A DNA stretch of 64,000 nt, taken from contig OY762492.1 of NCBI GenBank assembly GCA_963665845.2, forward strand, positions 2,336,001-2,400,000, in the 5' to 3' direction. Positions within the stretch are counted from its first letter, which is position 1; every line of letters begins with the position of its first letter. This DNA comes from Candidatus Poribacteria bacterium (GTDB taxonomy: Bacteria > Poribacteria > WGA-4E > GCA-2687025). A model generated the notes under the pieces. The model was not told the origin of the DNA, did no database searches, and saw only the letters and a list, made by a program, of their open reading frames with translations. Below are positions 1,611 through 27,712 of this stretch, one piece after another. The position numbers and the translations under genes were made by a program.

Positions 1611-1701
1611 GCGCCTGCGTCGGCTAAGATTCCCGCTTACGCGGGAATGACGGCCTTGGGCGCCTGCGGCGGCTAAGATTCCCGCTTACGCGGGAATGAC
1701 G
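1611..1701 (-). repeat. Two tandem REP-like palindrome units (49-bp period)
   Basis: GCGCCTGCG(T/G)CGGCTAAGATTCCCGCTTACGCGGGAATGACG at 1611-1652 and 1660-1701, just downstream of uvrB. Confidence 0.9.
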
Positions 1702-1720
1702 ACCAGGTAGACAACGCTCT

Positions 1721-3715
1721 TTATTCGGCGAAATCGCCGCGCAAGCCGTCGATCTGGTCGCGCAGCGCCGCCGCCTTTTCAAACTCCAGCGCCGCGGCCG
1801 CTTTCTGCATCTCCTCTTGGAGCCGTTTGATGAGCGCGTTGACATCGCCGCCGTATTCTTCAGCCGCCTCGGCGACCATGTCTGCCGCCGCCTGCGATTC
1901 GTCCGGGACGGCCGATTCCTCGTCTTCAAAACGCAGCGAGCCGCGTATATCCTTGATGACCGTCTTTGGCACAATGCCATGCTTTTCGTTGAATTCCAGC
2001 TGACGATTTCGCCGCCTGCCGGTCTCTTCGATGGCGATGTCCATCGAGTTTGTGATACGGTCGGCGTACAAGATCACCTCGCTTTCGGCGTTTCGGGCGG
2101 CGCGTCCGGCGGTTTGAATCAGCGACGTGCTGGAGCGCAAAAAGCCTTCCTGATCAGCGTCCAGAATGGCGACCAGCGCCACTTCGGGAAGGTCAAGCCC
2201 CTCGCGCAGCAGGTTGATGCCGACCAGTATGTCGAATTTTCCCTCGCGCAGCTCCCGCAGTATTTCCGTCCGCTCCAGCGTGTCGATCTCCGAGTGCAGA
2301 TAGCGCGCCTTCAACCCAAGCTCCACAAAATAGTCGGTCAAATCTTCCGACATGCGCTTCGTCAGCGTCGTCACCAGAACGCGCTGACCCGCCGCCGCCC
2401 GCTTTCGACATTCGCCGATGAGATGGTCAACCTGCCCCTCCGTCGGCTGCACATGGACAGGCGGGTCGACAAGCCCCGTCGGGCGAATCACCTGCTCCAC
2501 CACCTGCGCGCTGCTGTCCCGCTCATAATCGCCCGGCGTCGCGGACACATACACCGTCTGGTTCAGCTTGATGTTGAACTCCTCGGAGCGCAGGGGGCGG
2601 TTGTCTAAGGCGGAGGGGAGGCGGAACCCGTAGTCGACCAGCGTCTGTTTCCGCGCGCGGTCGCCATGGTACATCCCGCGTATCTGCGGCAGCGTTACAT
2701 GCGACTCGTCAATGAAAACAAGGTAATCGTCCGGGAAATAATCGATCAGGCAGGAGGGCGGCTGTCCAGGCTCCCGCCCCTCAAAATGGCGCGAATAGTT
2801 TTCGATGCCTTGACAGCTCCCGACTTCGCGTATCATCTCCAGATCGAATCGCGTCCGCTGTTCAATGCGCTGCGCCTCCAGCAGTTTGCCGCGCTCTATG
2901 AACCAAGGGATGCGCTCCTGAAGCTCATGCTCAATGGCGACCAGGGCGGTCTCCTGCATCTCCGGCGCCGCCATATAATGGTACGCCGGGAATACGCCAA
3001 CGCTGCCCATCTCGCTCACCACCTCCCCCGTCAACGGATTGATCTCGCGTATGCGGTCGATTTCATCCCCAAACAGCTCCACGCGAAAAGCGGACTCTCG
3101 ATACGGCGGCCAGATGTCCAGCACATCCCCCCGCGCGCGGACGCAGCCCTCCTCAAAGCCAGCGTCGTTTCGCTTATACCGCACATCGATGAGGCGGCGA
3201 ATGATGTTGTTTCGGTGAATCTCCTGACCGACCGACAGCTCCACCTTCTGCTTCTCATACTCTTCAGGCGAACCCAAGCCGTAGATGCATGACACGCTCG
3301 CCACGATGAGAACATCCCGCCGCGTCAACAGCGACTCGGTCGCCATCATGCGGTAACGCTCAATCTGATCGTTACGCAGCAGATCTTTTTCGATATAGGT
3401 GTCGGTCGACGGGATATACGCTTCAGGCTGGTAATAATCGTAAAAACTGACGAAGTAGCGGACAGCGTTGTTTGGGAAGTACTCCCTGAACTCGGAGAAC
3501 AGCTGCGCCGCCAAGGTTTTATTGTGGGAGACGACCAGCGTTGGGCGCTGAACCGCCTCCACCACTTTTGCCATCGTGAAGGTTTTGCCGCTGCCGGTGA
3601 CGCCCAGGAGCGTCTGTTTCTCCGCGCCGGACGCGATGCCCTCCGCCAGCTTGTCTATCGCTTCAGGCTGATCGCCCGCGGGTTCATAATCCGCTACTAC
3701 TTTAAACTTTTCCAT
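1721..3715 (-). CDS. uvrB: Excinuclease ABC subunit B
   Basis: [44 protein letters not shown]-terminal UVR motif [11 protein letters not shown]. Confidence 0.99.
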
Positions 3716-3774
3716 GAACGGCGCTCTCCATATGTTTTACCTGACCCCGCTCCTTAGAATTGCAGCAATTCTGA

Positions 3775-3831
3775 ATGCGAATGCGGACGGCCTCTGCGGC
3801 ACTTAAGATTCCCGCTTACGCGGGAATGACG
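3775..3831 (-). repeat. REP palindrome with partial MITE-C arm
   Basis: ATTCCCGCTTACGCGGGAATGACG at 3808-3831, with an adjacent degenerate GCCGCAG..CGTCCGC arm on the minus strand. Confidence 0.8.
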
Positions 3832-3859
3832 ATATGCGGCGCGGCGCTCTCCGTATGCC

Positions 3860-5314
3860 TTACGGTTCCCAATCCTCTCGGATGTAAAGAGCCGCGCGGT
3901 TGTCTTCTTTAATGCGGTTTTTCCAGTACATGTTGCCTTCAAAATCGAGCCGCTCATACCCTTCAAAATCCCTGTTCGGTTTGGAGACGATGATGGCGTC
4001 CGGTTTCCCCTCTAGGAGCTTTTTGATGTCCCCGTCGCGCGCGACCGAGTCGCCCCATCCCTGCCGATTCGGGTCGTCCGGCTTTTCCCATCTCCAGTAG
4101 GCGGGCGGGTTGCCGTTGTTGTGGTTTGAGAACAGGTTGCTTTTGAAGTAGGGCTGGAAGGTTGTCGACCAGAAGTTCAAGCCGATCACGTTGCCGTTTT
4201 CCAAGCCGCGCTCTTTGACGGCGGCGGACAGCTGTTTCCCCGGCGAATATTCGCTTGACCAGTCGCCGCGGGAGACCTGAACCGTCCAGAATATCTGAAC
4301 GGCGCAGAATGCCAAACATGCAGCCGCCATCGCCCAGCGCATGAATTTCGGCTCCCAACGGCGCGGCTCAATCGACTTGTCAAAACTGACCCAGACCGCA
4401 AACAGCCACCAAAGCACAAGGACGCCCTCATGCCAGCCGTTGAAATACTTGATGCCGAACAGCGTCATAATGCAGAGCGTCGGCGCGAGGTAGATGTACA
4501 GCGTCCGCCGAAAATAGAACCAGACAAGCGAGACGGCGACAATCGGCAGCGTCAAGATCCACCGCTCCGTCATGGAGGCGTTCAGCGCGTATTTCGCCGT
4601 GTTGAAGGGACCCTTCCATGCGTTGAGCAGGTCGTTCCAGTTGATATGCCAGCGGTAGAAGGTGGAGTTTTCGGGCTGCCACAGCTGATAGATCAAGAAC
4701 AAGCCGGCGGCGACATAGGACCCGAAACAGAGCCAGTACGTGCGCTTCTGCTCCTCGGACAGCTCGGCGCGGCGCATCAGCGCTTCCACAAAAAAGGCGA
4801 TCATGATACATCCCGCGCCGACGGCGGGGAAAACGCTCGTGAAGGTCAACAGGGCGCAGATCAGGACGAACCGCCATGGGCGCTCATGCCGCCGCGGGTA
4901 TTCATGCGCGAGCCAGAACATCAGCAGCGGCAGCAGAACATAACTGCGCGCGACGACCGCATACTGATAAAAAAGAAAGTAGGTGAACGGAACCGCCAAA
5001 CGAACCGCCAACGGAACCGGCGACCGCAGCGTCCAGAGCAGCGCGCCCGCGATGCCGAATAGGACGGCGACGACCGTCATCGCGCCGTATGGGAGCGTCT
5101 TCGCAAACGGCGTCAGGACAAGATACCAAAGGATCGGATGCCCCTCGTAGCGCAGGACATCAACCGCCATCTGGATCGGGTTCGAGTCGCGCGCGATGAG
5201 CCACGCCTGCGCCTCGTCCGCCCACGGCTCATGACGCAGCGCGACCGCCGCGACGCCGACCGCATAAACCGCCGCGCCTACCCAAACAACATACCGCCAA
5301 CGCGATGTTTCCAT
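3860..5314 (-). CDS. Polytopic membrane protein, GT-C-fold glycosyltransferase-like
   Basis: Likely start METSRW (ATG 5314); HEPWADEAQAWLIAR and LRYEGHPILWY loop motifs followed by many TM helices. The longer 723-aa ORF call is an overlap artefact. Confidence 0.7.
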   Translation of the reverse strand: METSRWRYVVWVGAAVYAVGVAAVALRHEPWADEAQAWLIARDSNPIQMAVDVLRYEGHPILWYLVLTPFAKTLPYGAMTVVAVLFGIAGALLWTLRSPVPLAVRLAVPFTYFLFYQYAVVARSYVLLPLLMFWLAHEYPRRHERPWRFVLICALLTFTSVFPAVGAGCIMIAFFVEALMRRAELSEEQKRTYWLCFGSYVAAGLFLIYQLWQPENSTFYRWHINWNDLLNAWKGPFNTAKYALNASMTERWILTLPIVAVSLVWFYFRRTLYIYLAPTLCIMTLFGIKYFNGWHEGVLVLWWLFAVWVSFDKSIEPRRWEPKFMRWAMAAACLAFCAVQIFWTVQVSRGDWSSEYSPGKQLSAAVKERGLENGNVIGLNFWSTTFQPYFKSNLFSNHNNGNPPAYWRWEKPDDPNRQGWGDSVARDGDIKKLLEGKPDAIIVSKPNRDFEGYERLDFEGNMYWKNRIKEDNRAALYIREDWEP

Positions 5315-26834: not shown

Positions 26835-26966
26835 GTTCCACGTTTTCACGGGGACATGCATTCCCGCGCGTTATACCGCATGGGCGGAAATCCAGAGTTT
26901 TCCCACACAGCCTACGCATTCCAAAACGGCTCTCCAAAATCAAAATCATTGTCTATAGAGACTTCC
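26835..26966 (+). mobile_element. Degenerate REP joined to the MITE-G right arm
   Basis: CCAGAGTTTTCCCA..CGCATTCCAAA..CTATAGAGACTTCC matches the reverse complement of 7066-7140. Confidence 0.8.
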
Positions 26967-26998
26967 GCCTCGCGGACGCCGGACGAAAGAACGCGCCG

Positions 26999-27394
26999 CT
27001 ATACTTCGCTGTCGGCGTCCGTTAGCATGGCGGCGATTTCGTCGGGCATCTTGATGCCGGTCTTCTGCTCAAAGTGGGCGACGTTCTCGTAGTCGTTATG
27101 GAATGAAGCGACGATATCGGATCCCATGTCTCTGGCTGTCGTCAGATCGGATTTGGCTTTATCCCAGCCTTCTTTATGCAACCATGCTGCGCCGCGATTG
27201 ATATAGGCTTGGGCGTAATTTGGATCCAGCTTTATCGCTTTGTCGTAGTCTGGAATAGCGTTGGTCCATTCGCGCATTTTGGAGTAGACTAGCCCGCGAT
27301 TGTAATATGCGGCTGCTTGATCAGGCCTGATCTTGATCGCTTCGGTAAAATAATACACAGCCTTTTCATAATCTTTATTGATTTTCGCGGTCAT
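26999..27394 (-). CDS. Small TPR-repeat protein
   Basis: GAGGAG RBS; AYYNRG, DYDKAIKLDPNYAQAYINRG. Confidence 0.88.
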   Translation of the reverse strand: MTAKINKDYEKAVYYFTEAIKIRPDQAAAYYNRGLVYSKMREWTNAIPDYDKAIKLDPNYAQAYINRGAAWLHKEGWDKAKSDLTTARDMGSDIVASFHNDYENVAHFEQKTGIKMPDEIAAMLTDADSEV

Positions 27395-27468
27395 TTACCC
27401 GTCTCCTCTGTTGCTGTGGGCAACAGCTCTATAGAAATCCGTAGGCTGCGTTTCTACCGCATTTGAAT

Positions 27469-27497
27469 AATATAATGCATCCGCCGGCGAACGTCAA
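27469..27497 (-). promoter_or_regulatory. Sigma70-type promoter of the small TPR gene
   Basis: TTGACG-17bp-TATATT on the minus strand. Confidence 0.75.
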
Positions 27498-27507
27498 CCC
27501 TGAATGT

Positions 27508-27712
27508 CTGACCTTACGTCTTAAGTTGGGACATGTCGGCATGCGAACGCGGACGTCTTCTGCGGCGCCTCTAGATTCCCGCGCGTTTTACCGCAGGGGC
27601 GGGAATGACGGCCTGGTTGTCGGCGCCTCTAGATTCCCGCGCGTTTTACCGCAAGGGCGGGAATGCATGTCTTCGCGGGCATGTCCCCGTGAAAACGGGG
27701 AAGCGGGGAACG
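27508..27712 (-). mobile_element. MITE-C arm with two long-loop REP palindromes and nested palindrome arm
   Basis: CTGACCTTACGTCTTAAGTTGGGACATG at 27508; ATTCCCGCGCGTTTTACCGCA(G/A)GGGCGGGAAT twice. Confidence 0.85.

Follow-up and report, generated by a model that had tools for sequence, protein, structure and literature searches.

NTS hairpins carried by two MITE families, and a one-sided 5′ footprint, in a Candidatus Poribacteria genome

Repeats in the window

The window is a 64,000-nt stretch (contig OY762492.1) of a Candidatus Poribacteria chromosome that is assembled as a single 3.95-Mb contig; the host bacterium is likely a sponge symbiont. It contains 17 palindromes, as an earlier note on this DNA had estimated: 10 exact copies of ATTCCCGC-N4-GCGGGAAT and seven long-loop forms (Table 1). 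A Markov-3 simulation gave no occurrence in 100 windows. Fuzzy matches inside genes at 50118 and 61837 were discarded as chance.

The core is the known NTS/dRS3 hairpin of the CGTC type, and the resemblance proposed in the earlier note is borne out by 174 exact matches of the published NTS consensus (tag, stem, loop, stem and tail in fixed orientation) to the genome, or 385 at ≤1 mismatch. About 980 copies occur genome-wide (982 counted), about 107 of them with long loops, and a C directly follows the palindrome in 99%. The hairpin is intergenic, just 6 of 982 copies lying within genes as called by a simple caller made for this analysis. Most copies are single or co-oriented (301 of 330 close neighbours share orientation). 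Features of the Neisserial NIMEs are present in the dRS3 core and the mosaic flanks; long arrays are rare, and the flanks are MITE arms. For 413 of 982 hairpins the nearest module on one side is a terminal repeat. Single-stranded folding predicts an 8-bp stem in four of four window copies (z −0.5 to −4.6). Replication-strand bias was not detected (466/982, p 0.12), the GC skew being too scrambled for defining strands.

Table 1. Repeat elements of the window (G and C, arms of MITE-G and MITE-C; G001, a same-genus genome)
Position	Strand	Element	Remarks
1552..1714	-	Insertion: two tandem NTS (1629-1648, 1678-1697) and decayed C-type arm	Absent in G001; skipped by contigs of runs X6, X7
3736..3858	-	One-sided insertion: NTS (3808-3827) and decayed C-type 3′ arm, without 5′ arm	Empty in G001; skipped in X6, X7
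7066..7219	-	Complete MITE-G: IS1-like terminal repeats, NTS 7141-7160, 8-bp duplication	Ends are those of the 822-825-bp parents
11722..11964	+	Composite: decayed G 5′ arm, NTS 11782-11801, short arm, partial C 5′ arm, long-loop NTS 11866-11897, full C 3′ arm	
15031..15135	+	Four half-copies (tag and 5′ stem, period 19-21 nt) immediately 5′ of full NTS 15116-15135	Polar footprint
15155..15228	.	Separate inverted-repeat element, GAACTAGGATT type	
17887-17989, 20151-20240, 21723-21842		Further copies of the GAACTAGGATT element	
17775..17882	+	CCCCGTTTTCACG module, 22-nt module, long-loop NTS 17825-17856	
18018-18048		Second long-loop NTS, decayed	Beside the 17775..17882 element
19950..20139	+	Complete MITE-C: IS4-like terminal repeats, 22-nt module, NTS 20053-20072	
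20260..20291	-	Long-loop NTS	Adjoins GAACTAGGATT element
21584..21693	+	G 5′ arm, NTS 21644-21663, ~30-nt 3′ stretch common to all families	Without C terminal repeat
23796..23939	+	Complete MITE, second IS1-like subfamily: NTS 23856-23875, 8-bp duplication (7/8 alike)	G001 site empty
26835..26966	+	Hybrid: CCCCGTTTTCACG module, long-loop NTS 26860-26891, G 3′ arm	At gene-order break vs G001; contig-bridged
27508..27712	-	Chain: modules, two long-loop NTS (27575-27606, 27633-27664), full C 3′ arm	
59298..59465	-	Complete MITE-C: NTS 59365-59384, 6-bp duplication	Gene-order break vs G001 despite intact duplication
61153..61224	-	Orphan C 3′ arm and broken hairpin	

The earlier note had listed pure and hybrid elements. 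Both pure ones (7066-7219 and 59298-59465) are confirmed, each with a target duplication; 26835-26966 is a hybrid and 27508-27712 a chain. Two elements had been given as joins of a G left to a C right arm. The one at 11722-11964 does hold arms of both families, but not in a simple join: it has two hairpins and switches mid-arm near 11812-11820. The one at 21584-21693 has the G 5′ arm, but on its right only the shared 3′ stretch. Missing from the orthologous G001 sites are the 11722-11964 spacer with the genes up to 13273, and the entire 21577-21908 mosaic. The MITE-C at 19950..20139 has inserted where a GAACTAGGATT element begins, and its duplication is 18 nt long. A cognate gene of the GAACTAGGATT element was looked for and not found, as were GxxExxY and DUF559 partners of other small repeats.

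Two MITE families carry the hairpin

The arm families named earlier are real and recur genome-wide; they belong to two MITE families, MITE-G and MITE-C. Their members have terminal inverted repeats and target duplications, lack a transposase and are shorter than ~400 bp; orthologous sites are found empty (41 clean filled/empty pairs), and resident IS elements have the same ends. Exact duplications flank 15 of 22 MITE-G (8 bp) and 52 of 117 MITE-C (5-9 bp, mostly 6-7 bp), the other 65 MITE-C being without an exact one. Copies diverge by ~20%.

The parents of MITE-G are three IS1-like elements of 822-825 bp with the terminal repeats of the MITEs, InsA and InsB ORFs and, at one copy, an exact 8-bp duplication; their IS1 Pfam matches are below cut-off. 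The parent of MITE-C is a 1267-bp element encoding a 371-aa DDE_Tnp_1 protein (PF01609, above cut-off) with a shorter, variable duplication (5-9 bp), a putative member of the IS4 family, whose transposases are characterised by a YREK signature. In a search of 121 genomes from the class, the MITE-C end pattern turned up in 3, and in another genus of the same taxonomic family these IS4-type ends occur on transposase copies without hairpins.

One central NTS is found in 116 of 117 paired MITE-C and 22 of 22 MITE-G. Since each MITE holds one hairpin, the hairpins probably hitch-hike on ordinary transposases, and MITE carriage by two unrelated IS families is one route of their spread, visible directly in the sequence.

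A candidate nuclease gene amid hairpins

Genes of the RAYT/TnpA-Y1, GIY-YIG or IS110 type, flanked by the same palindromes, had been suggested as partners. A GIY-YIG gene resembling ssnA lies 37 kb outside the window, with inward-facing NTS arrays on both sides. It encodes a small, single-domain protein of 102 aa (Pfam GIY-YIG PF01541, 55 bits), whose Y7, Y18 and E65 correspond, by numbering alone, to Y6, Y17 and E64 of the Neisseria protein. Relatives of the gene have hairpins on both sides in 39 of 80 cases and on one side in 24 of 80. A solved-structure search gave only a weak UPF0213 match and a spurious WD40 match. For a RAYT the result was negative: PF01797 has no match in the 90%-complete genome, and the hairpins were accordingly not placed among REP/RAYT (REPIN) systems.

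The footprint is strictly 5′

Partial copies of the 5′ half of the hairpin lie 19-38 nt upstream, mostly 21-23, of 121 of 812 NTS in this genome, 7 of 152 in G001 and 10 of 171 in other phyla (at 8 of 62 loci). Copies of the 3′ half, sought in the same three sets, number 0 in each. In unrelated phyla, half-copies match the stem variant of their own locus. The units start at −11 to −14 in 88 of 115, which is 3-5 nt farther from the hairpin than the cut in Neisseria; SsnA there cuts the tag strand only, a few nt 5′ of the hairpin, at −9/−8 as we interpret the position from the available text of Chenal et al. 2025 (PMC11893778). The 152 half-copy chains have 120 distinct spacers and include 18 in-place duplications, against 2.7 expected. 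Spacers between half and full copies are mostly pyrimidine-rich and without a match to the sequence further upstream.

Larger losses are polar as well. Copies with only the right end and a unique left flank number 74, versus 33 of the opposite kind, the 5′ arm being lost more often (p 9e-5), and 11 of 36 insertions in this genome start 9-18 nt 5′ of the hairpin while 1 of 36 ends equally close on the 3′ side. The 3736..3858 insertion, which lies between the copies of an imperfect ~22-nt duplication, begins 14 nt 5′ of its hairpin. For one-sided copies, a model of purely target-primed insertion is inseparable from transposition plus 5′ deletion, because in some truncated copies the initial 8-10 nt of the terminal repeat survive, together with a normal duplication. 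A C at −9 (frequency 0.71 in this genome) was rejected as a universal cut motif, its frequency at other ssn loci being 0.23 (n = 149).

The polarity fits cutting by the putative Ssn nuclease 5′ of the hairpin, and the one-sided scars are likely marks of such cuts by the partner enzyme. It is rather unlikely that the nuclease plays no chromosomal part and that polarity comes from descent of compound units, polymerase slippage at the hairpin and biased MITE decay. Slippage would keep the period once two copies exist, the scar start is not exactly at the Neisseria cut, the pyrimidine-rich spacers are unmatched further upstream, and the in-vivo role given for Ssn in the available text concerns incoming DNA only (PMC11893778). 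A symmetric palindrome should nevertheless scar both sides, and the counts are 121:0, 7:0 and 10:0; the tracking of local stem variants in unrelated phyla, the diversity of spacers and the excess of in-place duplications also speak against this reading.

Exchange and gene-order breaks

The earlier note had read the palindrome as a hub at which arms, and possibly flanking genes, are exchanged, and had proposed two tests, enrichment of breakpoints at the palindrome and mapping of synteny breaks. Arm mixing itself is well founded: haplotype blocks of the two arms assort independently (V 0-0.32, all p>0.15), and inside the left arm linkage falls with distance (rho −0.57, p 5e-4). The enrichment is absent. 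In 105 full MITEs, switches are least frequent across the palindrome, at 0.019/nt versus 0.028-0.084 elsewhere (0.104/nt in a control with the palindrome unlinked on purpose), making it the coldest stretch for exchange in MITE-C. Cross-family hybrids are rare (14 of 193 paired elements), the tally of swapped target duplications (0-3) is no higher than the null gives (0-3), and reciprocal swaps were not found. The reported clustering of junctions at the palindrome comes in part from the anchoring, because the families have only about −10..+30 around the hairpin in common; within families, switches spread along the arms. Inheritance of the 3′ arm as a block was rejected, the linkage asymmetry being largely gone after removal of one 17-copy subfamily.

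Gene-order breaks, taken from a two-genome comparison with G001 and not outgroup-polarised, fall in repeat spacers in 126 of 146 cases. Broken spacers comprise 91 of 235 with NTS, 35 of 46 with other repeats but no intact hairpin, and 20 of 1060 repeat-free ones. Synteny breaks thus do map to repeat spacers, but more often where the hairpin is missing. In a first test, with total spacer length defining the strata, the association was gone from 9 of 10 bins; we judged that test over-controlled because the elements lengthen spacers, and redid it with repeat-masked length. The excess for NTS spacers then has an OR of 9 with unique length controlled, and the hairpin an OR of 0.14 with repeat length in the model. 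We infer that breaks arise through transposase activity and general repeat recombination, not through the palindrome as such.

A site-specific crossover hub swapping arms and flanking genes, a role also proposed for dRS3 (PMC1797815), is on these results improbable, and for within-family exchange it is already largely refuted. The independent haplotypes and the break excess at NTS spacers are what a hub would give, as are the positions of 8 of 9 testable cross-family hybrids at breaks (p 0.08 vs pure MITEs) and a few breaks at which G001 has one of the MITE ends in common but not the sequence on the opposite side. They have to be set against a palindrome that is cold for exchange, the rarity of hybrids and of swapped duplications, the higher break rate of other-repeat spacers and the low hairpin OR, and an equal frequency of breaks at MITEs with intact duplications (33 of 59) and at others (29 of 48, p 0.70). 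A one-sided version of the idea survives, in that events cluster just 5′ of the hairpin.

An IS110 element inside the hairpin

The suggested link of an IS110 element to the palindrome was also found. All ends recovered, nine left and nine right, are joined at the same point inside the hairpin. The element (1.5 kb, ~10 copies) has DEDD and Transposase_20 domains and a fixed target, and its 5′ non-coding part contains short stretches matching target and donor. Given the architecture of bridge-RNA elements, these matches make it a candidate for one. All eight testable copies are at gene-order breaks, and several are bordered by an arm of one family on the left and of another on the right. These observations would suit IS110 as the main arm-swapper, its copies recombining and its excision leaving palindrome-joined hybrids and rearranged genes. 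We consider this very unlikely with ~10 copies against ~980 hairpins: it predicts palindrome junctions that the within-family data lack, swapped duplications were not found, and excision was not observed.

That the chimeras are misassemblies at short repeats can practically be dismissed: no single contig among those listed bridges the 11722-11964 composite, but the chromosome is one contig, copies differ by ~20%, contigs of three runs (one study, possibly the source of the assembly itself) bridge the 26835-26966 hybrid with 0 differences, and same-arm hybrids occur in G001 also.

Proposed mechanism

The mosaics are probably NTS-carrying MITEs that nest and recombine along their whole length, with an Ssn-like nuclease cutting 5′ of the hairpin. 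Parent transposases would move the MITEs, and hence the hairpins; MITEs of the two families would insert into one another, and dispersed copies would recombine by gene conversion. The nuclease may cut the tag-bearing strand when it is single-stranded, after which repair by microhomology or template switching would delete the 5′ arm or, alternatively, re-copy the sequence between about −12 and the loop.

A bolder idea, which we hold tentatively, is that the spread and remodelling of the chromosomal hairpins are driven by the Ssn nucleases themselves, through cuts at these hairpins. The cut, 5′ of the tag, would free a unit of hairpin plus 3′ arm; copying of this unit to new sites or onto resident hairpins would leave the 5′ half-copies of 19-23 nt seen in different phyla. 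IS-derived MITEs that capture a hairpin would exploit the process and take it around the genome. If true, this would be the missing dissemination mechanism for dRS3/CGTC repeats. The strictly one-sided scar, recurring in other phyla, yields a precise, assayable prediction for Ssn action on chromosomal copies, and such scars could reveal how these hairpins spread.

Relation to known systems

NTS with Ssn, MITEs and REP-targeting IS110 are already known; the polarity is the new element of this analysis. The NTS (Ssn-related motif) with SsnA (Chenal et al. 2025, PMC11893778) is the same intergenic hairpin with a single small GIY-YIG gene amid hairpins. The available text leaves NTS spread as a hypothesis and does not describe MITE carriage or a 5′ footprint; here we find both, and the long loops besides.

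The Neisserial dRS3/RS mosaics share the dRS3 core with many flank families, dynamic arrays and association with the ends of synteny blocks, and a recombinase hypothesis exists for them in the portions available (PMC1797815, PMC9778887). In this genome, by contrast, the principal flanks are equipped with terminal inverted repeats and target duplications, their parent IS can be identified, and long arrays are rare. The old idea of dRS3 as a site-specific recombination hub, with concentrated crossovers and reciprocal products, was tested and is unsupported within this genome.

CGTC-1 REPs (Di Nocera et al. 2013, PMC3733652) have the same CGTC tag, 8-bp stem, 4-nt loop and short tail and no RAYT. 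They are mostly head-to-head dimers and, in the available part of that survey, ‘lack a dedicated transposase’, whereas two unrelated IS families are the carriers here.

Bacterial MITEs moved in trans by a related IS likewise have the terminal repeats of a resident IS, target duplications and filled and empty sites; in contrast to typical ones, as covered in the available text (PMC3184786), nearly every copy here has a central NTS and is heavily recombined. The IS110 element is like REP-targeting relatives such as IS621 and ISPpu9 (PMC3184786; see also PMC11208160, PMC12288879), with a DEDD transposase at one fixed REP point and a 5′ non-coding region containing stretches that match target and donor, except that its target is the NTS.

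Hairpin copies and spread

The earlier note's count of about 17 palindromes in the window is borne out: we found 17, 10 of them exact, and Markov-3 simulations gave 0 in 100. The core is already known, being the Neisseria Transformation Sequence (NTS) of Chenal et al. 2025 (PMC11893778), whose consensus, in the part of that paper available to us, is matched 385 times at ≤1 mismatch. The 3.95-Mb contig in which the window sits, from a genome that is 90% complete, carries the hairpin 879 times with a short loop (≤1 mismatch) and 107 times with a long loop; 6 of 982 NTS fall inside genes called by a simple in-house caller. 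The exact core occurs 806 times in the source genome (G000), 200 times in a same-genus genome (G001) and 12 times in a genome from another genus of the family (G003), with at most one in each of the remaining 38 of 41 searched genomes.

In co-directional spacers of G000 the tag strand is the coding strand of the flanking genes in 322/505 cases (p 6e-10). About 107 long-loop hairpins have a 12-nt loop insert of the CCTTGCGGTAAAACG type (e.g. window 11866-11897), which is also found alone within 3′ arms.

Miniature transposons as carriers

Carriage of NTS by miniature transposons is shown directly by the sequence. Inward-facing terminal-repeat pairs number 193: 117 complete MITE-C, 22 complete MITE-G, 40 of one family with one unclassified end, and 14 cross-family. 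Exact target duplications flank 15/22 MITE-G (8 bp) and 52/117 MITE-C (5-9 bp), and duplications visible inside other repeats mark nested insertions. The ends of MITE-G recur on three elements of 822-825 bp that have IS1-like InsA and InsB ORFs (Pfam scores below cut-off), and those of MITE-C on one 1267-bp element coding a 371-aa DDE_Tnp_1 protein, a parent tentatively labelled IS4, the family with the YREK signature. A terminal repeat is the nearest module for 413/982 NTS.

Comparison of G000 with 2.78 Mb of the about 3.6 Mb of G001 (all or part of 17 of ~40 contigs) gave 41 clean filled/empty sites, and contigs of two further studies likewise lack two of the insertions seen in the window. 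Since in G003 the transposase copies that bear the C-type ends have no hairpins, and the majority of that genome's hairpins are in tail-to-tail pairs with a variant hairpin, the fusion of MITE and hairpin looks genus-specific among the genomes seen. MITE-C appears to prefer targets near promoter-like sequence; in its flanks genome-wide the frequency of A at -11 is 0.48 and that of T at +11 is 0.50, and the sequence is often TTGAC-like.

Exchange within and between families

The earlier note read the palindrome as a hub at which element arms are exchanged. Exchange itself is upheld: among the 105 of 117 complete MITE-C that were aligned (the others being excluded by length or hairpin number), two 12-nt left-arm haplotypes occur in free combination with those of the right arm (V 0-0.32, p>0.15). 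Linkage also falls off within the left arm (rho -0.57, p 5e-4) and, after removal of one subfamily, within the right arm (rho -0.37, p 1e-3). A centring of exchange on the palindrome is not supported. A copying model gives 0.019 switches/nt over the palindrome and 0.028-0.084 in other bins, and when the data were unlinked at the loop on purpose the palindrome bin rose to 0.104; the palindrome is therefore the coldest stretch for switching in MITE-C, and the predicted enrichment of breakpoints there is absent. Among interior bins, switching peaks at -30 to -4 (0.066). Recurrent mutation may inflate all of these rates.

Between families, the only common sequence is about -10 to +30 around the hairpin, so plain homology would by itself place apparent cross-family junctions at the hairpin. 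Target duplications surround 0/14 cross-family hybrids, and duplications swapped between distant loci number 0-3, the same as the null (0-3). A symmetric recombination hub at the palindrome is not supported.

Gene-order breaks

G000 and G001 are heavily rearranged (median protein identity 92%). We scored 1341 spacers flanked by orthologues at either end, excluding intermediate 'near' cases, and found 146 broken. The proposal that synteny breaks map to palindromes holds in part: NTS spacers are enriched in breaks (91/235, vs 20/1060 for repeat-free spacers), but spacers with other repeats are broken more often (35/46). Odds ratios controlled for unique length and orientation are 9 for NTS and 43 for other repeats, and that of the hairpin drops to 0.14 once repeat length enters the model. 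Among the larger classes, spacers with orphan terminal repeats have the most breaks (18/23 without a hairpin, 47/94 with one); spacers with only a hairpin are broken in 21/81. MITEs coincide with breaks at similar rates whether their duplications are intact (33/59) or not (29/48; p 0.70); most breaks therefore did not arise by crossing over within those MITEs. Counted in favour of the earlier note are the cross-family hybrids (8/9 testable at breaks) and the IS110 sites (8/8 testable). Two breaks, at 26835 and 59298, lie within the window. In an earlier analysis, stratifying by total spacer length abolished the association. The association is correlational; insertion and breakage may both prefer transcription-unit boundaries.

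GC skew along the G000 chromosome is weak with many sign changes, in agreement with heavy rearrangement, and IS1595 copies are likewise numerous. A 1.55-kb piece at window 11720-13273 (composite repeat plus TPR-protein gene) is missing from the orthologous G001 site.

One-sided scars and the nuclease gene

The new part of the analysis is the polarity of the scars beside the hairpin. Half-copies, made of the tag and 5′ stem, lie directly upstream of 121/812 hairpins in G000, where most stand 21-23 nt away, 7/152 in G001 and 10/171 in other phyla (8 of 62 hairpin-bearing loci, 79 loci examined), and mirror 3′ half-copies number 0 in all three sets; a looser count gives 115 5′ vs 1 3′. Their spacers are varied, with 120 kinds among 152 chains, including 21 that arise artefactually from a 22-nt module, and 18 are in-place duplications vs 2.7 expected. 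Copies beside unique DNA more often retain only the right terminal repeat (74 vs 33 left-only, p 9e-5), and the repeat stops ≤18 nt from the hairpin in 33/74 right-only vs 5/33 left-only copies (p 0.004). Of 36 insertions at empty sites, 11 start on the 5′ side of the hairpin at a distance of 9-18 nt and have 1-35-nt duplications.

A symmetric hairpin should scar both sides; one-sided scars would be expected of an enzyme that recognises the tag and cleaves on its 5′ side. An Ssn-like nuclease acting in this manner would leave scars on the 5′ side only, and a one-sided nuclease footprint beside NTS is the likely reading of these sequence patterns. In the available part of PMC11893778 the Neisseria enzyme cleaves only the tag-bearing single strand, and its oligo list and 20-nt product place the cut, on our reading, between -9 and -8 from the stem; the half-copy units begin farther out, at -11 to -14, which counts against the cut model. 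For the truncated copies, normal transposition followed by 5′ deletion fits as well as one-ended insertion.

Of the genes that the earlier note proposed to look for, a GIY-YIG gene is flanked by the palindromes, bracketed by hairpin arrays facing inward (see table); another of them, a RAYT, was not found in the 90%-complete genome. Among 80 relatives, 39 have hairpins on both sides, 24 on one and 17 on neither. G001 has ssnA-like genes at two loci, L005 and L007 (C32 ~70100; C16 ~144800-145120). The C16 copy is split over two frames. At C32 the gene lies within a stretch that is unbroken in G000, an arrangement suggesting movement of the gene itself.

A 22-nt module between tag and stem (window 20031-20052 and 102 genome copies) has the length of the half-copy period and is possibly an old, fixed half-copy.

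In the parts of these reports available, mosaics of dRS3, their association with the ends of synteny blocks and a recombinase hypothesis have been published (PMC1797815, PMC9778887), and CGTC REPs are reported without a dedicated transposase (PMC3733652). No open-access title or abstract was found for NTS within IS-derived MITEs or for polar half-copies, which older Neisseria repeat papers may mention.

IS110 inside the hairpin

An IS110 tied to the palindrome, which the earlier note also proposed to look for, is present. This 1542-bp element has DEDD and Transposase_20 domains (locus L114, G000:C1:534423-535965, plus about 9 other copies) and is joined at one fixed point within the hairpin at 9/9 left and 9/9 right ends found in G000; the same holds for at least 3 of the 4 right ends detected in the part of G001 that was covered. 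Its 230-nt 5′ end has short, bridge-RNA-like matches to target and donor. It resembles the REP-targeting IS110 elements described in the accessible part of PMC3184786.

Other repeats and genes

Positions of the nuclease gene and of further features
Feature	Position	Remark
ssnA-like GIY-YIG gene, 102 aa	G000:C1:2298872-2299180	37 kb before the window
Inverted-repeat family, GAACTAGGATT ends	window 15155-15228, 17887-17989, 20151-20240, 21723-21842	
C/G hairpin, CCCCCTTTTCAAGGGGG type	window 15267-15283, 21877-21893	
Three tandem genes of 126-nt repeats	window 51118-55750	WD40-like by period only

No cognate gene was found for the GAACTAGGATT inverted-repeat family, nor a DUF559 gene as partner of the CCCCCTTTTCAAGGGGG-type hairpin. 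The former has 228 ends genome-wide and is often fused to the 3′ arm of the NTS hairpin, some 26-31 nt inside that arm; the latter has 484 copies.
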